Part shown: piece by piece, positions 1-9,314 of the stretch
How the letters are laid out: each line of letters begins with the position of its first letter
Position numbering within the stretch: the first letter of the stretch is position 1
NCBI RefSeq assembly: GCF_964273255.1
Contig: NZ_OZ186835.1
Span: 1,555,413 to 1,619,412 of the forward strand
DNA: 64,000 nucleotides
From: Streptomyces sp. enrichment culture
GTDB taxonomy: Bacteria; Actinomycetota; Actinomycetes; Streptomycetales; Streptomycetaceae
Direction of reading: 5' to 3'
The notes under the pieces: generated by a model
What the model saw: the letters and a program-made list of their open reading frames with translations, nothing else
The model's database searches: none
What the model was told of the DNA's origin: nothing
Position numbers and translations under genes: made by a program

Positions 1-1275
1 ATCCTGCTCCTCCGGCTCGTCCGGGCGGGTGCGGACGACCAGCAGGGCGGCGCCGAGCGCGACGGCCACGAGGGCGCCGAAGACGGTGGCGATGCCCGCG
101 TCGCCGGCCAGGGCGAGGCCCGCGCCGCCGAGGGCCGCGCCGGCGAAGACGCCGAGGCTCTGCCCCGCCGCGTTCAGGCTCAGCGCGGCGCCGCGCCGGG
201 CTCCGCAGCGCCGCACGAGCAGGCTCACGGCGCAGGCGGCGACGACGGCGTGGCTCGCGGCGTGCAGCGCGGTGAGCGCGAGGGCGAGCGGCAACCGGTC
301 GGTGGCGTAGAAGGCGACGACCGAGGCCAGGGACGTCAACAGGCCCACGACGAGGAGCCGTTCGGTGCTCAGGCGGGGGGTGGCGGAGTTGGTGATCCGT
401 CCGGTGAGCAGGTTGCTGACGAAGTACGCGGTGCCGCTGAGCGTCCACACGAGGGCGAAGACGGCGGGGCCGAGCCCGAACCGTTCGTCGTAGTGGGCGG
501 CCAGGTAGGCGAGGTACCCCATGAACACGGCGGTGCGCAGCAGGGAGACGAGCAGCAGCGGCACCGCGCCGGGGACGGCCACGAGTCCGCGGAACGAGGC
601 CAGGTAGCCGGGGTGCCGGGCGGCCTCGGCACCCGGGCGGTCCCCGTCCGCCTCGCGCCGGCCGCGGGTCAGGACGACCGCGGCGAGCACGAGGCAGGCG
701 GCGGCCACGGCGAGGAGGTCGCCCTGCCAGCCCCACAACAGGGCGGGCAGCGCGACGGCCGGTGCGGCGAGCATCGCGGTCATCGACTGGGTGGCGGTGA
801 CCAGGGTCGCCGCCCGCCCGGCCGCCGGCCCGTCGCCGTACCGGTCGGCGGCCGCGGCGGTGAGGGCCGGGTTCAGTACGGCGGTGCTCGCGCCGACGAG
901 CAGGCAGAAGGCGGCCAGCAGCACGAAGTCGCCGCTCGCGCCCAGCGCCGCCGACGCGCCGAGGACGACGAGCGCGCCCGCCGCCGCCCGGTCGCGGCGC
1001 ACCCGGTCGAGGAACGGGGCGAGGGCGGTGCCGACCAGGAGGGCGGCCAGCCCGCCGAGTCCGCGCAGGCCGCCGACGGCGGCGACGCCGCTGCCGGCGC
1101 GGTCGGCGATGGGGACGAGGTAGGTGCTGAAGACGGTGAACGGCAGCAGTCCGACGGCGGAGGCCAGCAGTACCGGCCACAGGGCGCGGGCCATCACGAG
1201 GTCGCCCGGCAGGGGGTCCTTGCCCGGCGAAGTCCCCGCGCCCGCCCCGGGGTTGCGGGAGGCGTCGGTGTTCAC
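1..1275 (-). CDS. MFS transporter (3' end runs off the window)
   Basis: Minus-strand frame not in the ORF track. GTG at 1275 overlaps the upstream TGA (GTGA). Translation (MARALWPVLLASAVGLLPFTVFSTYLVPIADRAG...) gives serial hydrophobic TM helices typical of MFS. Confidence 0.8.
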   Translation of the reverse strand, partial: MNTDASRNPGAGAGTSPGKDPLPGDLVMARALWPVLLASAVGLLPFTVFSTYLVPIADRAGSGVAAVGGLRGLGGLAALLVGTALAPFLDRVRRDRAAAGALVVLGASAALGASGDFVLLAAFCLLVGASTAVLNPALTAAAADRYGDGPAAGRAATLVTATQSMTAMLAAPAVALPALLWGWQGDLLAVAAACLVLAAVVLTRGRREADGDRPGAEAARHPGYLASFRGLVAVPGAVPLLLVSLLRTAVFMGYLAYLAAHYDERFGLGPAVFALVWTLSGTAYFVSNLLTGRITNSATPRLSTERLLVVGLLTSLASVVAFYATDRLPLALALTALHAASHAVVAACAVSLLVRRCGARRGAALSLNAAGQSLGVFAGAALGGAGLALAGDAGIATVFGALVAVALGAALLVVRTRPDEPEEQD

Positions 1276-2123
1276 GGGCCGTCCTCGCCGGGGAGTGCGG
1301 GGGCCGGGCGGCCGGTCCGGTAGCGGTACATCGTCGTGGGCTCGGCGCTGAACTGGGAGAACGGGAAGGGCTCGGCGTTCAGGGCGGTGACGCCGCGGGA
1401 GAGGAAGGCGCGGGCGACGGCGCTGCCGGTCTGGGCGTAGACGACGAGGGGGACGTCCTGGTCCCGGCAGTGTTCGAGGACGAGGTCGAAGGTGCCGTTG
1501 CTCAGGGTCATGCCGGTGGCGACGACGGCGTCGGCCGCGGCGAGCACCTCGGTCATGTCGTCGGTGACCGGCTCGCCCCACTGCGTGGTGCGCAGGTTGA
1601 GGTCGCAGGGCAGGCAGACGCCGCCCCGCTCGTGTATCGCGGTGATGAGCGGGTTGACCACGCCGATGAGGGCGACCTTGGCGCCCGGCGCGATGTCGAG
1701 CAGGGAGGCGACGGCGGCGTCCCGGGCGCGGGCCCGGACCTCCGGGGTGCCGGCGGGCAGGGCGACGGGTTCGGCGCCGGGCGCCTCCCGGTGGGGTGTG
1801 ACGTGGGACAGGTAGGCGTCGAGCGCGGCGGTCCGGACGGGGGTCGCCGGGTGCCGCAGCAGCGCGGCGAGGGTGTGTCCGGAGGCGTTCTCGCAGATGT
1901 CGGGGGCGAGTTCGCCGGCCTCGAAGGCGCAGGCGCCGAAGACGGGTCCGGTCCGCAGAACGAAGTAGTGGTTGTGGTAGGTGACATCGCCGCCGGCCAG
2001 CCGGGTGGTGTGGTAGATCCGGAAGGCGCTGGTGACGTGCAGGGCGTGGGGGTCGGGTCCGTGGGCGCCGGCCAGGACGGCGTCGGTCAGGGCGGCCACG
2101 GTGCGCGGCTCGGGGTGGGGCAT
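1272..2123 (-). CDS. DUF364-like Rossmann-fold (putative heavy-metal chelation) protein
   Basis: 283 aa. KVALIGVVNP, LPCDLN and ADAVVATGMTLSNGTFD resemble DUF364 proteins. Tightly coupled to its neighbours. Confidence 0.7.
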   Translation of the reverse strand: MPHPEPRTVAALTDAVLAGAHGPDPHALHVTSAFRIYHTTRLAGGDVTYHNHYFVLRTGPVFGACAFEAGELAPDICENASGHTLAALLRHPATPVRTAALDAYLSHVTPHREAPGAEPVALPAGTPEVRARARDAAVASLLDIAPGAKVALIGVVNPLITAIHERGGVCLPCDLNLRTTQWGEPVTDDMTEVLAAADAVVATGMTLSNGTFDLVLEHCRDQDVPLVVYAQTGSAVARAFLSRGVTALNAEPFPFSQFSAEPTTMYRYRTGRPAPALPGEDGP

Positions 2124-2124
2124 G

Positions 2125-3150
2125 TCAGTCTCTCCGGTCGGCGGGGCGGGGGGAGTCCGGCAGGCGCAGGTCGGCTCGGGCCGCGGTGGACCAGGGGCGC
2201 CGCAGGTCGCGCAGGTCGGTGATCTCGTGCGGTTTCAGGGCGTCGGGGTCCTTCGCCTCGCGGTGCCGGGCGTAGGCGTCGTCGACGTAGCGGTGGCCGG
2301 TGTCGGGCGCGATGAAGACGTGGGTGCGGGCGCCGTCCCGGCGGCGTTCCCAGTGGGCGGCGAGGTGGGCGGCACCGGTGGACAGGCCGGCGAAGATGCC
2401 GGTGTCCCGGAGCAGTTGGACGGCACCGGAGAGGGCGCAGTCGAAGCCGACCCAGTGGATCCGGTCGTAGAGCGCGTGGCGGACGTTGCGGAACTCGATG
2501 GCGCTGCCGATCCCGGCGATGATCATGTCGGGGTCCGTCACGTGCTGCGCGCCGAAGGTGACGCTCCCGAAGGGCTGGACGCCGACCAGCGACACGTCGC
2601 GGCCGGCCTCGCGCAGCCAGGTGGCGAGGGCACCGGTGGAGGCGCCGGAACCGACTCCGCCCACCAGCGTCAGGGGGACGCCGGGGATCTCCCGGTCGAT
2701 CCGTGCGGCCACTTCGCGGTAGCCGAGGTAGTGGATGTCGTCGTGGTACTGGCGCATCCAGTGGTACGTGGGGTTGCGGTCCAGGATCTCGGCGACGCGC
2801 CGCACCCGGGACTCCTGGTCGAGGCGCAGGTCCTGGGAGGGCCGGACCTGTTCCAGGGTGGCGCCGAGGATCTCCAGCTGGACGCGCAGGGTGTGGTCGA
2901 CGGTGGTGGAGCCCACGATGTGGCACTTCATCCCGTACCGGTGGCAGGCGAGGGCGAGCGCGTGGGCGTAGATGCCGCTGGAGCTGTCGACGAGCGTGTC
3001 ACCGGGGCGGACGGCGCCGGTCTCCAGGAGGTGGCGCACCGCCCCGAGGGCCGAGTGGAGCTTCATGCTCTCGAAGCGGAGACACACCAAGTCCGGTTGC
3101 AGCGAGATGAGATCCGGTCTCTTGACCGCCTCCGCGATGTGCGGGTCCAT
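2125..3150 (-). CDS. Cysteine synthase/SbnA-like fold-type II PLP enzyme
   Basis: 341 aa. PLP Lys in FESMKLHSA, substrate loop DSSSG, YHWMRQY, phosphate loop VGGVGSGAST. Confidence 0.85.
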   Translation of the reverse strand: MDPHIAEAVKRPDLISLQPDLVCLRFESMKLHSALGAVRHLLETGAVRPGDTLVDSSSGIYAHALALACHRYGMKCHIVGSTTVDHTLRVQLEILGATLEQVRPSQDLRLDQESRVRRVAEILDRNPTYHWMRQYHDDIHYLGYREVAARIDREIPGVPLTLVGGVGSGASTGALATWLREAGRDVSLVGVQPFGSVTFGAQHVTDPDMIIAGIGSAIEFRNVRHALYDRIHWVGFDCALSGAVQLLRDTGIFAGLSTGAAHLAAHWERRRDGARTHVFIAPDTGHRYVDDAYARHREAKDPDALKPHEITDLRDLRRPWSTAARADLRLPDSPRPADRRD

Positions 3151-3202
3151 GCCGGTCCTCCTGTCTGGTCGGCGACGGGACCGGCGTGAGCATCACATCA
3201 AA

Positions 3203-3217
3203 TGAAAATGATTGTCA
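3203..3217. promoter_or_regulatory. Zur-box-like 7-1-7 dyad TGAAAAT-G-ATTGTCA
   Basis: AT-rich imperfect palindrome in the divergent intergenic region; one mismatch to the Streptomyces Zur consensus TGAAAATGATTTTCA as I recall it. Confidence 0.7.
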
Positions 3218-3292
3218 ACATCGAAAGAGTCGGTAGCACGAGCGCCGGCCAGCGGACGGAACCCGGGGTTGCCCACTCCGGCCCCACTCGCG

Positions 3293-3307
3293 TACAAATG
3301 ATTTTCA
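3293..3307. promoter_or_regulatory. Second Zur-box-like dyad TACAAAT-G-ATTTTCA
   Basis: Right half is a perfect match to the same consensus; lies 10 nt before the kinase ATG. Confidence 0.55.
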
Positions 3308-3316
3308 CTTTCATCT

Positions 3317-4258
3317 ATGACGGCTGACACCCCATCACGGAGGACTCGCGTGCGCACCGGAGTGGGTACCGCCCACGGCACCTTCGGCGAACTGCTGCAG
3401 GGCGTACTGCCGGAGAGGGACGGGGACTTCCTGGTCACCCTGCCGGTGGCGCGCTGGACGAGAGCGGTCTTCCGGCCGGACCCGGCGGCCACCGGCGTGG
3501 TGGTGCGGCCGGCCGGGAAGCGCAAGGCCCTGCGGCTGGCCCGCCTCCTGCTCGCCGAGGCCCCGCGGCCGGCCGGCGGGGTGCTCACGGTCAGCAGCCT
3601 GCTGCCGGAGGGCAAAGGGCTGGCCAGTTCGTCCGCCGATCTGGTCGCCACCGCGCGGGCCATGGGGCAGGCGCTCGGCCTGGCGATGCCCGCCGCCCGG
3701 ATCGAGCGGCTCCTGGCCCGCATCGAGCCCACCGACGGCGTGCTGCATCCCGGCATCGTCGCCTTCCACCACCGCAGCGTGCGGCTGCGGGCGGTGCTCG
3801 GGTCACTGCCGCCGATGGCCGTGGTGGGCGTGGACGAGGGCGGCGCGGTCGACACGGTCGCCTTCAACCGCCTCCCGAAGCCGTTCACGGCGGCCGACCG
3901 GCGCGAGTACGCGCGCCTGCTGGACCGGCTCACCCTCGCCGTGCGCGCCCAGGACCTCGCCGCGGTGGGCCGGATCGCCACCCGCAGCGCGCGGATGAAC
4001 CAGGCGCTGCGCCCGAAACGGCTGCTGGACCCGCTGTGCGAGATCTGCCGCGAGGTCGGCGGTCTGGGCGTCGCGGTCGGCCACAGCGGGACGGCCCTGG
4101 GTGTGCTGCTGGACACCGCGGACCCGGCGTACACCCACCGCGCGACCGCGGCGGCGCAGGCGTGCGCGGGTCTCGCGCACGGCGTGACGGTCTACCGGAC
4201 GCTCGGCTTCTCCGGACCCGTCCGGCCCGTCGCCCCTCCCCCGCCGGTGCCCGCCTGA
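3317..4258 (+). CDS. GHMP-family kinase (PduX/L-threonine kinase-like)
   Basis: GTFGELLQG N-terminal motif, PEGKGLASSSAD ATP-binding loop, C-terminal GHSGT. Confidence 0.85.
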   Translation: MTADTPSRRTRVRTGVGTAHGTFGELLQGVLPERDGDFLVTLPVARWTRAVFRPDPAATGVVVRPAGKRKALRLARLLLAEAPRPAGGVLTVSSLLPEGKGLASSSADLVATARAMGQALGLAMPAARIERLLARIEPTDGVLHPGIVAFHHRSVRLRAVLGSLPPMAVVGVDEGGAVDTVAFNRLPKPFTAADRREYARLLDRLTLAVRAQDLAAVGRIATRSARMNQALRPKRLLDPLCEICREVGGLGVAVGHSGTALGVLLDTADPAYTHRATAAAQACAGLAHGVTVYRTLGFSGPVRPVAPPPPVPA

Positions 4259-4263
4259 AAAAG

Positions 4264-4301
4264 CCGCCGCCCACGTCCCCGGCGGGGGTCGTGGGCGGCG
4301 G
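4264..4301. terminator. Hairpin between convergent genes
   Basis: 12-bp stem CCGCCGCCCACG/CGTGGGCGGCGG just after the kinase stop. Confidence 0.6.
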
Positions 4302-4338
4302 TGGGGGCGGCGCGGGGCCGGCGACGGGCGTCGAGGGT

Positions 4339-5655
4339 CTACGCCGCGTCGCTGCCGGTCGCCGCCAGGGCACCTCCCCCGGTCTCCTCAGGGGCGGCCG
4401 AGGACAGCGGGATCGGGGTGAACAGGGGCGGCTCCTCGTCGGGAGTCAGGGCGGTGGGACCGTACACCCAGTCGGTGAAGTGGTAGTCGTAGGTGTCCCG
4501 GGCCCGCATGATCGCGTTGCGGCGCAGCCGCGGCTCCCCGTCGAGGTGCCACAGTTCGCCCCAGGCGCGGGCGGTGGTCTGGACGCGGCGGCAGTGCTCC
4601 ACCCGGACCGCCTGGTACGCGGCGAGCGCGTCCTCCCACGCGGGTCGGGTGCCCTCGGGGGCTGCCCCGGCCAGCCGCGCGTAGTGCTCGGCGAGCACCC
4701 AGCCGTCCTCGATGGCCATGATCGCGCCCTGCGCCATGTACTGCAGCGGCGGGTGCGCGGCGTCGCCGAGCAGGACGACGCGGCCGTGGACCCAGGTGTC
4801 GACCGGGTCCCGGTCGAACATCCGCCACCAGCGGTCCCGCCACATCAGCGGGATGCCCTTGCGCACGGGGTCGCAGGTCGCCTCGAAGGCGGCGTCCAGC
4901 TCGTCCGGGGTGCCCCAGTCCTCCTGGCCGGCCAGGGCCTTGGGCGACTCGAACACGGCGACCTGGTTGAACATGTCGCCGCCGCGCAGGGCGTACTGGA
5001 CGAAGTGGCAGCGCGGGCCGACGTACACGGTGACGTCGTTCTCCGCGATGCCGTTGTCCCGGACCTGCTCGATCGGCACGGCCGCCCGGTAGGCGACGTA
5101 GCTGGAGCTGACCACGTCGTCGCCGATCAGCTTGGTGCGCGCCACGGAGTTCAGGCCGTCCGCGGCGATCACCAGGGGAGCTTCCTCGGTGCTGCCGTCC
5201 GCCAGGCGCACCAGGGCGCCGTCCGCGGTCTGCTCGTAGTCGACGACCGTGCGGTCGGTGAGCAGTTCGACCCCGGCGCGCTCGCAGGCGCGCAGGAAGA
5301 TGCCGTGCAGGTCGCTGCGGTGGATGACCATGTACGGGAACCCGTAGCGGCGTTCCAGGTCGCGCAGGTCCAGCCGGGTCAGCTCGCTGGAGTCGAGGGC
5401 GTCGCGCATCACCATGGCGTCCGGCACGACGCCGAGTGCGCGGGCCTCGTCGAGGAGACCGTACTCGTCGAGGATGCGCGTGCAGTTGGGTGCGATCTGC
5501 AGGCCCGCGCCGACCTCGCCGAACGCCGGGGCCCGCTCCAGGACACGGACCCGCAGCCCCTGGCGGGACAGGGCGAAGGCGGCGCCGAGGCCGCCGATGC
5601 CGCCGCCGACCACGAGGACGTCGGGCCGCCCGGCGGGGGTGGGTTCAGGATTCAT
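4339..5655 (-). CDS. nagX: 3-hydroxybenzoate 6-hydroxylase-like flavoprotein monooxygenase
   Basis: GGGIGG FAD motif, DG motif, GDAAHPPLQYMAQGAIMAIEDG as in actinobacterial 3HB6H. Last gene of the gentisate operon. Confidence 0.8.
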   Translation of the reverse strand: MNPEPTPAGRPDVLVVGGGIGGLGAAFALSRQGLRVRVLERAPAFGEVGAGLQIAPNCTRILDEYGLLDEARALGVVPDAMVMRDALDSSELTRLDLRDLERRYGFPYMVIHRSDLHGIFLRACERAGVELLTDRTVVDYEQTADGALVRLADGSTEEAPLVIAADGLNSVARTKLIGDDVVSSSYVAYRAAVPIEQVRDNGIAENDVTVYVGPRCHFVQYALRGGDMFNQVAVFESPKALAGQEDWGTPDELDAAFEATCDPVRKGIPLMWRDRWWRMFDRDPVDTWVHGRVVLLGDAAHPPLQYMAQGAIMAIEDGWVLAEHYARLAGAAPEGTRPAWEDALAAYQAVRVEHCRRVQTTARAWGELWHLDGEPRLRRNAIMRARDTYDYHFTDWVYGPTALTPDEEPPLFTPIPLSSAAPEETGGGALAATGSDAA

Positions 5656-5686
5656 GATCGGTTCCTTACGGTTCGCGGACCCCTGG

Positions 5687-6397
5687 TCAGAGCCAGGCGC
5701 CCAGCGTGGGGGCGGGGCTTCCGTCGGCGGTGCGCGGCACGGCGCCCCGTCCGGTGAGGTAGGCCGCGAGGTCCGGCAACGTGCCCTCGACCAGGGCGGG
5801 TTCGCCGTCGCCGGGCAGGTTCCAGGTGGTGTCGCCGGCCGGCACCCGCAGGGTCACGGCCGGACCGGGGGCGGCGGAGCGCTTGGCCACGACGTCGTCG
5901 CAGAGGGCGGCCAGGAAGTCCTCCTGCAGGTCCCCGAAGGTGACGCCGGCCGCCAGGTCGACGGCGTGCACGCACACCTCCCGGGACCGCAGCCAGGGCA
6001 CCTCGGTAGCCGGCACCGTCCTGCCCTGCGCGGTGACCACCTCGCGGCGCCACTGTTCGTCGCCGAGCGCGGCCATGCCCTCCTCCAGCGCCCGTGCCGA
6101 GGAACGCAGCCACGCGGTCAGCTCGGCGGCGGGCAGGGCCCGGCCCCGCTCGAGGCCGGCGGCGCGCTCCTCGGGGGAGGCGTACATGGGGGTGGGCTCG
6201 CCGGTGGCAGCCCAGTGGACCAGGTTGGACAGCGCCTCAGCGTTGGCGGCGACGTGGGCGGCCAGGTGGGCCCGGCTCCAGCCCGGCAGCGTGCTGGGTC
6301 CGGCGAAGGCGGCGGCGTCGAGACCGTCGGCGGCCTTCAGCAGCAGCTCCGTGCCGTGCCTGCTCCAGTCGCGGGCCTGGTCGAAGGTGCGGGCCAT
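5687..6397 (-). CDS. nagL: Mycothiol-dependent maleylpyruvate isomerase family protein
   Basis: PSTLPGWSRAHLAAHV and REVCVHAVDL metal-binding motifs; gentisate operon context. Confidence 0.85.
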   Translation of the reverse strand: MARTFDQARDWSRHGTELLLKAADGLDAAAFAGPSTLPGWSRAHLAAHVAANAEALSNLVHWAATGEPTPMYASPEERAAGLERGRALPAAELTAWLRSSARALEEGMAALGDEQWRREVVTAQGRTVPATEVPWLRSREVCVHAVDLAAGVTFGDLQEDFLAALCDDVVAKRSAAPGPAVTLRVPAGDTTWNLPGDGEPALVEGTLPDLAAYLTGRGAVPRTADGSPAPTLGAWL

Positions 6398-7245
6398 CAG
6401 GCGGACTTCTCCTTGACGACCGTGTTCTCCAGGCGGCCGATGCCCTGGATCTCGGTGACGATCCGCTCGCCGCCGAGGAGGTAGCGGGCGGGCTTGCGGG
6501 CGTGGCCGACGCCGCCGGGGGTGCCGGTGGCGATGATGTCACCGGGGTTCAGCCGGGTGATGGTCGAGACGTACTCGATCAGGTCGACCGGGTCGAACAG
6601 CAGGTCGCCGGTGGTGTCGGACTGCATCACCTCGCCGTCGACGGTGAGCGTGACGTCGAGGGCGGGGCGGACGCCGCCCGGCAGCTCGTCGGGGGTCACC
6701 AGGTACGGGCCGACCGGCGTGGTGGAGTCCCACATCTTGCCCTGGAGCCACTCGCGGGTGCGGAACTGCCAGTCCCGGCAGGTGATGTCGTTGAGCACGG
6801 TGAAACCGGCGACGGCCTGCTCGGCCTCCTCGCCGCGGGCCCGGCGCACGCCCTTGCCGACGACGACCGCGAGCTCGACCTCCCAGTCGAACTGCTCGGT
6901 CTCGCCGGGCCGGACGATGTCGTCGCCGGCGCCGATCAGAGAGTCCGCGAACTTGGCGAACAGGGTGGGGTGTTCGGGCAGGTCGCGGCCCATCTCCTGG
7001 ATGTGGTTGCGGTAGTTGAGGCCGACGCACACCACCTTGGAGGGGGTCGGCACCACGGGGGCGAAGTCGGCGCCCGCCACCGGGTAGCTGGTGGCGCCGT
7101 CGGAGGTGACGGCGGCCGCGCGCCCGGCCCAGCCCTCCTCGGCGAGCAGGGCGCCCAGGTCGGGGGCGCCGAGGTCGACCAGGACGTCGCCGTCCAGCTT
7201 CACGGCGCGGGTGGTGCCGCCGGTGCGGAGGGTGGCGAGCTTCAT
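6397..7245 (-). CDS. nagK: Fumarylacetoacetate hydrolase family (fumarylpyruvate hydrolase)
   Basis: Starts MKLATLRTGG (ATGA overlap). KVVCVGLNY, DWEVEL, LNDITCRD, GDIIATGTPGGVG. Confidence 0.9.
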   Translation of the reverse strand: MKLATLRTGGTTRAVKLDGDVLVDLGAPDLGALLAEEGWAGRAAAVTSDGATSYPVAGADFAPVVPTPSKVVCVGLNYRNHIQEMGRDLPEHPTLFAKFADSLIGAGDDIVRPGETEQFDWEVELAVVVGKGVRRARGEEAEQAVAGFTVLNDITCRDWQFRTREWLQGKMWDSTTPVGPYLVTPDELPGGVRPALDVTLTVDGEVMQSDTTGDLLFDPVDLIEYVSTITRLNPGDIIATGTPGGVGHARKPARYLLGGERIVTEIQGIGRLENTVVKEKSA

Positions 7246-8411
7246 CGGGTGGTTCCTTCCACGTGGGTACGGTCGAGCCGCAGGGCTTCGAAGATCGGCG
7301 AGTCGCTGAACCGGAACAGGTCCAGGGCGCCGGAGTCGGAGTCGGTGGACCCGGCCTCGGAACGGACCGAGAACGGCTGCCAGGAGGGGACGACGAACAG
7401 GTCGCCGCGGCTGACCGACCAGGTGGTGTCGCCGACGGTGACCGTGCCGGAGCCGTCGAAGACCTGGTAGACGGAGGACCCTGTCTCGCGCACCGGGGCC
7501 GTCTCGGTGCCGCGCGCGACGCGGTGCACCTCGGCGCGGATGGTCGGCAGGACGTCGGCGCCGGTCGCCGGGTCGGAGAAGCGGACGGCGGCGTGTCCCG
7601 GCTCGACGGTGCCCCCGTACCCCTCGGCCTCCAGGGCGAGCTGGTCGGCGAGGGCGCGGTCGGTGTGCTCCCAGCGGTAGGCGAGCAGCGGGGAGCCGGG
7701 GCCGGCCGGTGCGGCGCCGACCGGGCGCAGCCCGGGGTGGCCCCACAGCCGCTCGGAGCGCGAACGGTCGGGGGTGATGCGCTCGGCGTCGCTGATCTCG
7801 TCCCGGCCGAACTCGAAGAACTGCGACTCGCTCGTGTACTGGAAGGGGATGTCCAGTCCGTCGATCCAGGCCATCGGCTCGGACGTGGCGTTGTGGTGGG
7901 CGTGCATGTTCCAGCCGGCCTGCGGCAGGAAGTCGCCGCGCCGCATGGCCACCGGGTCGCGGCCGACGACCGTCCACACGCCCTCGCCCTCGACGACGAA
8001 GCGGAAGGCGTGCTGGGTGTGGCGGTGCTCCGGGGCGTCCTCGCCGGGCATCAGGTACTGGATGGCCGCCCACAGCGTCGGGGTGGCGAAGGGCCGCCCG
8101 CCGAGCGAGGGGTTGGCCAGCGCGATGGCGCGGCGCTCGCCGCCGCGGCCGACCGGAACCAGCTCGCCGGCCTGCGCGGCCAGTTCCCGCAGGCGCTCCC
8201 ACCGCCACAGGTGCGGCAGGGCGCGGGACCGCGGGTGGGCCGGCATCAGGTCGCCGATCTCGGTCCACAGGGGGACCAGGAGTTCCTTCTCGAAGCCCCG
8301 GTACAGCTCTTCGAGGGCGGGGGTGACCTCGGGTTGCCCCTCCGCGGCCACGGCTTCGAGCCGGACCGGGGAACCCGTCACCGTGTCGTGGGCGAGGGAG
8401 GAGTGCGTCAT
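7242..8411 (-). CDS. nagI: Gentisate 1,2-dioxygenase (bicupin)
   Basis: ERRAIALANP, TLWAAIQYLMPGEDAPEHRHTQHAFRF, WNMHAHHN, DGLD. Confidence 0.9.
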   Translation of the reverse strand: MTHSSLAHDTVTGSPVRLEAVAAEGQPEVTPALEELYRGFEKELLVPLWTEIGDLMPAHPRSRALPHLWRWERLRELAAQAGELVPVGRGGERRAIALANPSLGGRPFATPTLWAAIQYLMPGEDAPEHRHTQHAFRFVVEGEGVWTVVGRDPVAMRRGDFLPQAGWNMHAHHNATSEPMAWIDGLDIPFQYTSESQFFEFGRDEISDAERITPDRSRSERLWGHPGLRPVGAAPAGPGSPLLAYRWEHTDRALADQLALEAEGYGGTVEPGHAAVRFSDPATGADVLPTIRAEVHRVARGTETAPVRETGSSVYQVFDGSGTVTVGDTTWSVSRGDLFVVPSWQPFSVRSEAGSTDSDSGALDLFRFSDSPIFEALRLDRTHVEGTTR

Positions 8412-8444
8412 GGCCCCAGGGTGCCGTGTGCCTCTCTGAAGAAC

Positions 8445-8471
8445 ATGCGAATTCTGCTGAGCAGAACGCAT
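8445..8471. promoter_or_regulatory. Candidate IclR operator (TTCTGC-TGA-GCAGAA within ATGCG...CGCAT)
   Basis: Extended dyad in the divergent dioxygenase/IclR intergenic region. Confidence 0.55.
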
Positions 8472-8537
8472 GAGAGGATGGCGGGAGACGGAGCGCCCGG
8501 CACCGGGGCGTCCACGACCTCCGGAAGGGCCGACGGG

Positions 8538-9314
8538 ATGGACAAACCGCTCAAGACGCCGCCGCCCTACCCCATCGCCAGCGTGGACCACGCGCTGCGG
8601 GCGGCGACCGTGCTGCAGATGGAGGGCGGCGCGACCGTGTCGCAGATCGCCGAGCGGCTCGGGGTGGCGCGTTCGACCGCGCACCGGCTGCTGGCGATGC
8701 TCGTGTACCGGGACTTCGCCGTGCAGGGCGAGGACCGCGTCTACCGGGCCGGGCCGGTACTGGAACTCGCCGCGCACTCCCAGTCCTTCGTCTCCCGGCT
8801 GCGCGCGGTGGCCCTGCCGCACCTGCAACGGGTCGTCGACCTGCTGGACGAGACGGCGAACCTGATCGTGCGCACCGGGGACACGGCCCGTTTCATCGCC
8901 TCCGTGGAGTGCCGGCAGACCCTGCGGGTGGGCTCCCGGGAGGGCATGGTGTTCCCGGCGCACCGCACGACGGCCGGTCTGCTGCTGCTCGCCGACCTGT
9001 CCGACGAGGAGCTGAGGGACGTCTACGCACCGGAGCGGTACACCGACCGGCCCGGCGAGCGCCCCGACCTGGACGCGCTGCGCACGGAGTTGAAGCGGCT
9101 GCGCCGCAACGGCTGCGCCGTCAACCGGGAGCGGTCGGAACGCGGGCTGGTGGCGGTCGGCGTGCCGGTGCGCGACACCGGCGGCCGGGCGCGGGCGGGC
9201 CTGTCGGTGTCGATGCCGAGCGTGCGGTACGACCCGCAGCGGCTGCGGTCCCTGGTCGCCGTCCTGGACGCCTCGGCACGGGCCGTGGAGCGGGACCTGG
9301 CCGAGGCGGTGTGA
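8538..9314 (+). CDS. IclR family transcriptional regulator
   Basis: SVDHALR...ATVSQIAERLGVARSTAHRLLAML HTH; HRTTAG effector-domain motif; divergent from the gentisate operon. Confidence 0.9.
   Translation: MDKPLKTPPPYPIASVDHALRAATVLQMEGGATVSQIAERLGVARSTAHRLLAMLVYRDFAVQGEDRVYRAGPVLELAAHSQSFVSRLRAVALPHLQRVVDLLDETANLIVRTGDTARFIASVECRQTLRVGSREGMVFPAHRTTAGLLLLADLSDEELRDVYAPERYTDRPGERPDLDALRTELKRLRRNGCAVNRERSERGLVAVGVPVRDTGGRARAGLSVSMPSVRYDPQRLRSLVAVLDASARAVERDLAEAV

Follow-up and report, generated by a model that had tools for sequence, protein, structure and literature searches.

A candidate zincophore locus in Streptomyces built on a PLP enzyme and DUF364 gene pair

A gene cluster at the left end of a 64,000 nt stretch of a Streptomyces sp. 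genome (contig C1, positions 1555413–1619412, here called the window; genome of 6.98 Mb in two contigs, ~73% G+C) encodes a pyridoxal phosphate (PLP) enzyme resembling SbnA, a DUF364 protein, a major facilitator superfamily (MFS) exporter, an ATP-binding cassette (ABC) importer and a divergently transcribed GHMP kinase. We cautiously favor the interpretation that this locus is a Zur-repressed zinc-starvation system for the synthesis, export and re-uptake of a zincophore, a small zinc chelator of the aminocarboxylate kind. Control of the cluster by Zur is very probable from its conserved sequence motifs, and a metallophore function can be regarded as reasonably probable. In 79/80 orthologous loci from different species the PLP gene adjoins the DUF364 gene, as determined by tblastn with all cluster proteins; the arrangement is therefore not due to chance (one genome per species was scanned, 516 genomes have a DUF364 relative, and locus counts given here refer to the best 80 of the 516). 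This pair forms the unvarying core of the cluster; it is the DUF364 protein, not the kinase, that is conserved as the partner of the PLP enzyme.

In the proposed pathway, Zur would leave two boxes when zinc is scarce, and the kinase gene and the operon encoding the PLP enzyme, DUF364 protein, MFS pump, permease, ATPase and binding protein would then be transcribed. The kinase, of the PduX/DabA type, would phosphorylate L-threonine or L-serine. The SbnA-like PLP enzyme would eliminate the phosphate to give an aminoacrylate or aminocrotonate and then add the amine of a second amino acid, such that the product would be an N-(2-amino-2-carboxyethyl/propyl) amino acid, as with DabB and SbnA. With neither DabC nor SbnB to cut this adduct, the DUF364 protein might extend or cap it, most plausibly by taking a 3-amino-3-carboxypropyl or azetidine unit from S-adenosylmethionine (SAM) with release of methylthioadenosine (MTA); this is the weakest step. 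The outcome would be a nicotianamine- or aspergillomarasmine-like polydentate ligand, to be secreted by the MFS pump and taken back up as the zinc complex by the FecCD-type ABC system.

Gene layout and Zur boxes

The minus-strand operon is translationally coupled. An initial annotation of the window had placed the PLP, DUF364 and MFS genes in one operon divergent from the kinase gene and had supposed that the cluster continues off the left edge. All four genes were found where it put them, and the genome adds three importer genes further left. The features are as follows, with negative positions counted leftward from the window.

1..1275, minus strand: MFS transporter, putative metallophore exporter (Pfam MFS_1, E 8.9e-26)
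1272..2123, minus strand: DUF364 protein, 283 aa (Pfam PF04016, E 7.4e-12)
2125..3150, minus strand: fold-type-II PLP enzyme, 341 aa (Pfam PALP, E 2.4e-32)
3203..3217: predicted Zur box 1, TGAAAATGATTGTCA, 53 nt upstream of the PLP start codon
3293..3307: predicted Zur box 2, TACAAATGATTTTCA, 10 nt upstream of the kinase start codon
3317..4258, plus strand: GHMP kinase, PduX/DabA type, 313 aa (GHMP_kinases_N, E 2.2e-10; GHMP_kinases_C, E 6.8e-6)
-20 to about -1072, minus strand: FecCD-type permease (left flank read from the genome)
-1074 to -1898, minus strand: ABC ATPase (Pfam ABC_tran PF00005, E 4.1e-30)
-1914 to -2930, minus strand: Peripla_BP_2 binding protein (Pfam E 2.9e-21)

A single base separates the PLP stop codon from the DUF364 ATG. 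The DUF364 stop and the GTG start of the MFS gene (at 1275) overlap as GTGA, and the MFS stop and the permease ATG overlap as ATGA. The last 8 codons and the stop of the MFS gene lie beyond the left edge, running 23 nt past it. Gaps further left are equally short, 1 base between the permease and ATPase genes and 15 nt between the ATPase and binding protein genes. A Pfam scan of the cluster proteins (the FecCD-like permease was left out of the scan) gave no match to SbnB/ornithine cyclodeaminase, in agreement with the initial annotation, and none to nicotianamine synthase or opine dehydrogenase.

The spacer between the PLP and kinase genes measures 166 bp (3151–3316). The Zur-binding motif of Streptomyces, tGaNNatSatNNtCa in a 7-1-7 arrangement, was derived from chromatin immunoprecipitation (ChIP) data on S. 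coelicolor Zur (PMC5472717). Box 1 matches this motif exactly and is one of only two exact matches in the genome; box 2 has two mismatches relative to the palindrome TGAAAATGATTTTCA. Sites with two or fewer mismatches to the perfect palindrome number only three genome-wide, and two of them are in the spacer. Box 2 is also found in the two closest relatives (loci L002 and L011). A Zur box with three or fewer mismatches is present in 75/80 orthologous loci, and in most box-bearing loci the reverse complement of box 1, TGACAATCATTTTCA, is found unchanged just upstream of the operon. The link to zinc in the initial annotation is supported by this conservation. As a control within the genome, the gene of a His-rich ZnuA lipoprotein, whose neighbors are a Fur-family gene and a znuC-like ATPase gene, carries TGACAGTCATTTTCA at its start; this box is weaker than box 1.

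Searches for other control elements were negative. No DmdR/IdeR iron box was detected in window positions 1–6000 or in type E loci, an Rfam scan gave no family over threshold at this locus, and no riboswitch was found in loci of types A–D (types A–C are described below). A scan of the spacer for sigma-70 promoters and terminators found nothing, but such a scan is uninformative for high-GC actinomycetes.

Cluster architectures, distribution and borders

The 80 loci are mostly from Streptomyces, with others from Spirillospora, Actinopolymorpha and Amycolatopsis. Three main architectures are seen.

Type A, 23 loci plus the window: kinase, Zur box(es), PLP–DUF364–MFS–permease–ATPase–binding protein
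Type B, 37 loci: methyltransferase-like protein, PLP, (PhyH-type 2-oxoglutarate (2OG) dioxygenase in 18), DUF364, MFS; no kinase
Type C, 20 loci: binding protein–permease–ATPase, (methyltransferase-like gene in 11), DUF364, kinase, PLP; MFS divergent

The gene order of the window recurs in 22 other type A loci. The biosynthetic core is always accompanied by an MFS pump, and most loci also have an ABC importer of the FecB or the NikA/Opp type; in this company the core is conserved over hundreds of species. Type B loci have an importer of either the Nik/Opp or the FecB class and frequently a Fur-family gene, and their methyltransferase-like protein shows a weak Pfam MTS match and an NPPA motif. 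The type C kinase, ~37% identical to that of the window, is encoded inside the operon between the DUF364 and PLP genes. Some genomes carry two clusters: G016 (the genome of locus L063) and Streptomyces sp. CC228A (loci L033 and L039). In one such genome types A and C coexist; in another, type B is present twice, on separate contigs.

A census of the genus was made with an even sample of 151 genomes. DUF364 homologues are present in 62 (41%); 24 of these are close orthologues (at least 63% identity; ~16% of the sample) and 38 belong to a ~45% class. In a more distant Streptomyces variant, whose DUF364 protein is 43% identical, the genes encode a GNAT protein, an ATP-grasp ligase, DUF364, PALP, an MR/MLE enzyme, MFS, a methyltransferase and a Nik/Opp-type importer, and a Zur-like box precedes them. 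PLP–DUF364 cassettes are not confined to Streptomyces: further actinomycete genera have them, as does at least one low-GC organism. This organism (38% G+C; GCA_041556995.1; locus L090, 8376–19402) encodes PALP, next a 701-aa protein in which an ATP-grasp domain (L-amino-acid ligase) is fused to DUF364, and then MFS and an ABC importer of the Nik/Opp type; thus the same core cassette is found far outside the actinomycetes.

One may speculate that PLP–DUF364 cassettes are a large unrecognized superfamily of minimal metallophore pathways, that DUF364, in convergence with nicotianamine synthase, uses SAM to transfer an aminocarboxypropyl group or to form an azetidine, and that the same kit is wired either to Zur boxes for zinc or, in a sister cluster that lacks DUF364, to cobalamin riboswitches for cobalt. 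This broader proposal is rather unlikely.

On the left the cluster ends after the binding protein gene, since the next genes are kept only in the closest relative (L002). They encode a membrane protein that contains a stretch rich in His, HAGHAAHAGHRGHD, and after it an extracytoplasmic function (ECF) sigma factor (minus strand, L001:11588–12361, window about -3824 to -3051), and both were rejected as cluster members on the ground of this narrow conservation. A similar His-rich membrane protein is encoded near the riboswitch-linked sister cluster in L101 (5024–5770). On the right, the kinase gene is adjoined by a 3-hydroxybenzoate 6-monooxygenase gene, part of an unrelated gentisate pathway. 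Window positions 4339–9314 contain this gene together with maleylpyruvate-isomerase-like, fumarylpyruvate-hydrolase-like and gentisate-dioxygenase-like genes and one for an IclR-type regulator.

Predicted enzyme chemistry and alternative explanations

Membership of the core protein in the DUF364 family is secure from Pfam, the AlphaFold model and Foldseek. The DUF364 profile (PF04016) scores 45.5 bits against a cut-off of 23, the protein consists of an enolase-N-like domain and a Rossmann-like domain, and the model (pLDDT 88.7) has 3L5O and 3NPG as its best Foldseek matches (E 4e-9, TM 0.59–0.67). The only DUF364 enzyme with a biochemical assignment is Orf5 of the bonnevillamide cluster, which converts (4''R)-4''-methyl-SAM to cis-methylazetidine carboxylate and MTA (PMC12930334). 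An Orf5-type gene was found in another Streptomyces by a Pfam search of the genus. It lies between genes for a B12-radical-SAM enzyme and a non-ribosomal peptide synthetase (NRPS), and the encoded protein has Tyr61 and Glu204 exactly at the published positions. Loci L109 (4416–7219) and L111, from other Streptomyces, encode a B12-binding radical-SAM enzyme, an Orf5-type DUF364 protein (with Tyr61 and Glu204) and an NRPS, and resemble methylazetidine-carboxylate cassettes of the bonnevillamide kind. A further candidate, P0170, was rejected as an Orf5 on the basis of its context, which consists of a 2-hydroxyacid dehydrogenase, DAO and an Orn/DAP decarboxylase.

The DUF364 protein of the window aligns with the Orf5-type protein (E 3e-9, hhalign probability 95.9). 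It was nevertheless rejected as an Orf5-type cyclase because Ala66 and Met205 occupy the positions of Tyr61 and Glu204. Met205 is invariant among window-type DUF364 proteins, and no radical-SAM methylase gene was found in the window cluster.

That DUF364 may act on SAM is suggested by the type B loci. In 5–7 of these, Zur boxes precede a divergent operon whose products are a UbiE-type methyltransferase, MetK, MtnA (IF-2B family), MtnB (class II aldolase) and ARD. An example is the tightly packed operon at L024:1263–5718 (minus strand), with Zur boxes at 5759 and 6197. The predicted gene functions imply that SAM supply and MTA recycling would be induced by zinc starvation, and because a Zur-boxed SAM synthetase and MTA salvage are found in type B loci, SAM can be considered a candidate stoichiometric substrate. 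The ATP-grasp::DUF364 fusion speaks for a biosynthetic role of DUF364 and against one in metal release. A SAM-dependent step performed by the DUF364 protein is proposed tentatively by analogy, and doubts about it outweigh the points in its favor.

The kinase and PLP enzyme have a published parallel. DabA, a PduX/BluE-type L-threonine kinase, gives O-phospho-L-threonine; DabB, with a cysteine-synthase fold, joins it to L-aspartate; and DabC, consisting of an ATP-grasp-like domain and an argininosuccinate lyase, then releases 2,3-diaminobutyrate (PMC10906522). The initial annotation had suggested that the GHMP kinase supplies an O-phospho-amino acid (Ser or Thr) to the PLP enzyme. Analogy with dab and gene context support this role well, but the principle of a GHMP kinase feeding an SbnA-like enzyme is not new, having been published in 2024 as DabA/DabB (PMC10906522). 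The window kinase is thus a putative L-Thr/L-Ser kinase supplying the PLP enzyme, and on the same grounds a coupling of the two appears, on balance, probable. The Foldseek matches of the kinase model are all generic GHMP kinases (mevalonate, homoserine, IspE, galactokinase) and give no substrate call. The nearest kinase paralogues outside these clusters, 55–70% identical, are in operons with the order Lyase_1 – kinase – PALP::ATP-grasp fusion – NRPS. These dab-type operons belong to Streptomyces NRPS clusters (L106:6950–13966, also L103, L104, L105 and L107).

The paralogues and the resemblance of the kinase and PLP pair to dabAB lend some weight to a first alternative, in which the three enzymes make only a free diamino acid, 2,3-diaminobutyrate or 2,3-diaminopropionate, for a purpose other than metal capture. 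The DUF364 protein would then replace DabC or SbnB as the cleaving enzyme, and the function of DUF364 leaves room for such a role. However, DUF364 displays no similarity to lyases or NAD-dependent dehydrogenases in the Pfam and Foldseek comparisons, and no NRPS or other consumer was found in or near the cluster. The exporter, the class-III or class-V ABC importers and the conserved Zur boxes fit a secreted and recaptured ligand instead, which makes the free diamino acid improbable as the end product. Under the zincophore interpretation, the N-substituted intermediate is probably kept and elaborated because there is no DabC, its partners being the DUF364 protein together with the exporter, importer and Zur boxes.

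The best NCBIfam match of the PLP enzyme is TIGR03945 (SbnA), at 131.9 bits and thus under the cut-off of 349.95; the CysK and CysM profiles give 83 bits or less. Its best PDB sequence matches are cystathionine β-synthase (CBS), O-acetylserine sulfhydrylase (OASS) enzymes and CmnB (E 1e-18 to 1e-17), with SbnA at E ~1e-14. The enzyme was aligned with Staphylococcus aureus SbnA (numbering from PDB 5D84–5D87), the true SbnA-family protein of its own genome and the orthologues. The Schiff-base lysine Lys47, Arg132, Gln151 and Tyr152 are kept, and Ser185 is replaced by Gly. Arg132, Tyr152 and Ser185 are the SbnA residues held responsible for O-phosphoserine selectivity (PMC12414870). The loop residue Asn77 (SSGN; T/S-S-G-N) is Ile in the PLP enzyme, and the loop reads SSSGIYA in all orthologues aligned.

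From these comparisons we conclude that the PLP enzyme represents a distinct subfamily of O-phospho-amino-acid β-replacement enzymes, neither an ordinary cysteine synthase nor an SbnA orthologue; putatively, it carries out C–N bond-forming β-replacement on O-phospho-Ser/Thr. The true SbnA-family gene is found elsewhere in the genome, outside the window (C1:2482882–2483778; L082:1474–2454), and scores 378.7 bits, over the cut-off. It is located directly upstream of an NRPS condensation-domain gene and probably supplies diaminopropionate for a non-ribosomal peptide or siderophore.

A second alternative is that the nucleophile in the PLP reaction is a thiol or sulfide, which would make the locus a zinc-sparing route to cysteine or an S-substituted cysteine, or the source of a thiol-type ligand. 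The cysteine-synthase fold and the CBS and OASS matches cited above are in keeping with this. The profile scores and the retention of Arg132 and Tyr152 point the other way, as do the canonical CysK/CysM/CBS-type genes with TSGNTG loops elsewhere in the genome and the lack of a sulfur-transfer partner (rhodanese, desulfurase) in the cluster, and a thiol route is quite improbable. The same evidence, together with the loss of the Asn of the TSGNT loop, indicates that the PLP enzyme is not an ordinary O-acetylserine sulfhydrylase, an outcome that the initial annotation had raised.

The initial annotation had also considered that the kinase might make threonine phosphate only for cobalamin. The window kinase is the only homologue in its own genome, and public sources name its orthologues kinase, GHMP family kinase, L-threonine kinase or "involved in propanediol utilization" (PduX-type). 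Kinase genes occur together with the PLP and DUF364 genes, divergently in type A and within the operon in type C. Of the 24 genomes in the even sample that have a close DUF364 orthologue, 21 carry the kinase gene as its immediate neighbor (3 type A, 18 type C). In one genome, whose assembly is fragmented, the kinase gene lies on a separate contig, and two genomes lack it, one of these being a type B genome with a Zur box. Compared with PDB sequences, the binding protein matches uncharacterized class-III binding proteins and then hydroxamate-, haem- and B12-binding proteins, which gives no ligand call.

A sister cluster in two type B genomes (L101:9468–15152 and L102:5302–11055) encodes a kinase (34% identical), a PLP enzyme (65% identical to that of the window), an ATP-grasp ligase, MFS, a methyltransferase and a FecB-type importer. 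It has no DUF364 gene and no Zur box, and cobalamin riboswitches (RF00174, 60–99 bits) are found before the kinase gene and before the importer. Because the kinase and PLP enzyme are paired again here without DUF364, the two appear to travel together. The sister cluster is possibly a counterpart controlled by cobalt or B12 status. This suggests an enzyme kit that is wired to different metal-status sensors, zinc at the window locus and perhaps cobalt in the sister cluster. In Pfam, DUF364 is associated with B12-related neighborhoods, which would fit a corrinoid role.

A third alternative, that this is a cobalamin or corrinoid locus in which the kinase makes threonine phosphate for the B12 nucleotide loop and a BtuF-family ABC system imports corrinoids or cobalt, would account for the PduX-type label of the kinase, the BtuF/FhuD family of the binding protein and the riboswitches of the sister cluster, but it is very improbable, given Zur boxes and no riboswitch here or in type A–D loci, Nik/Opp-type importers in type B clusters, the absence of any kinase homologue from 6/10 type B genomes when CbiB is present in 20/20 genomes tested, and a distance of 4 Mb between CbiB and the kinase gene in the window's genome. 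The kinase is thus not merely a source of threonine phosphate for cobalamin.

Several observations weigh against the zincophore interpretation. Type B clusters work without a kinase, and the riboswitches of the sister cluster leave a small probability for a corrinoid or cobalt link of the enzyme family. The loop Asn conserved in SbnA and CysK is missing from the PLP enzyme, so its chemistry may differ. The DUF364 protein is only 28% identical to the Orf5-type protein, with the changes Tyr61 to Ala66 and Glu204 to Met205. The link to methionine salvage is seen only in type B loci, whose methyltransferase-like protein could be the user of SAM, and no ARD homologue was found in the window's genome by tblastn.

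Significance and relation to known systems

Full-text literature searches (DUF364; Zur, zincophore and Streptomyces; SbnA with metallophore; and related terms) returned no description of the cluster or its product. What is new is the combination of enzymes and the proposed DUF364 step within Zur-regulated small aminocarboxylate metallophore systems; the kinase–PLP principle is already known. To our knowledge, the only zincophore proposed for a model Streptomyces is coelibactin, which is still unisolated. If the interpretation is correct, the locus would represent a new class of small zinc chelators, relevant to metal ecology in soil and of possible interest for metallo-β-lactamase inhibition, as with aspergillomarasmine A. 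The large DUF364 family, with one biochemical assignment so far, would gain a physiological role, and the kinase and PLP logic recently found for diaminobutyrate would have a second use. The system is compact, with three enzymes and transporters behind Zur boxes, and is widespread in the genus census in terms both of close orthologues and of the wider PLP/DUF364 superfamily.

The dabABC operon for (2S,3R)-diaminobutyrate is known from monobactam biosynthesis in Pseudomonas and Burkholderia and from the friulimicin, pacidamycin and napsamycin clusters (PMC10906522). As in dabABC, a PduX/BluE-type GHMP kinase is encoded beside a PLP enzyme with a cysteine-synthase fold. The window PLP enzyme is only ~30–33% identical to the dab-type enzymes, however, and the argininosuccinate-lyase-type DabC and the NRPS consumer are absent from the window cluster and from type A–C loci; the window instead has DUF364, an exporter, an importer and Zur boxes.

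With SbnA/SbnB/SbnI of staphyloferrin B biosynthesis in S. aureus, the locus appears by analogy to share a dedicated kinase and a PLP β-replacement enzyme within a metal-regulated metallophore locus. SbnA carries out PLP-dependent β-replacement on O-phospho-L-serine with the amine of an amino acid, and the window enzyme keeps Lys47, Arg132 and Tyr152. It differs from SbnA in a score far under the family cut-off, in the lost loop Asn and in Gly at position 185. The window cluster also has neither SbnB nor NRPS-independent siderophore (NIS) synthetases, its kinase has the GHMP fold and is not SbnI, and its boxes are for Zur and not Fur.

Orf5 of the bonnevillamide cluster belongs to the same Pfam family and has the same fold as the window DUF364 protein (PMC12930334). 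The window protein departs from it in having neither Tyr61 nor Glu204, no radical-SAM methylase neighbor and another genomic context.

Aminopolycarboxylate chelators are a further point of comparison. The ethylenediamine disuccinate (EDDS) and EDHA clusters of Amycolatopsis, reportedly described by Spohn et al. in 2016 (cited in PMC12161575), are said to employ SbnA-like PLP enzymes, with EDDS under Zur control. Fungal aspergillomarasmine A (AMA) is a zinc-chelating aminopolycarboxylate that is also made with an SbnA-like PLP enzyme. Synthesis of EDDS and AMA proceeds either through SbnB-like and decarboxylase enzymes or through one iterative synthase, and we know of no DUF364 protein or GHMP kinase in the EDDS/EDHA or AMA routes.

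Nicotianamine, staphylopine and pseudopaline are zinc-regulated small aminocarboxylate ligands built partly from the aminobutyrate units of SAM. The window cluster differs from the nicotianamine synthase (NAS) and CntL–CntM systems in that its Pfam-scanned proteins have no match to either nicotianamine synthase or opine dehydrogenase, and its DUF364 protein is a putative user of SAM. The logic of an exporter combined with an Opp/Nik- or Fec-type importer is common to the window locus, these systems and the phytosiderophores. The likeness extends to the sister loci, whose SAM synthetase, methionine-salvage cycle and 2OG dioxygenase resemble mugineic acid biosynthesis in phytosiderophore-producing roots.

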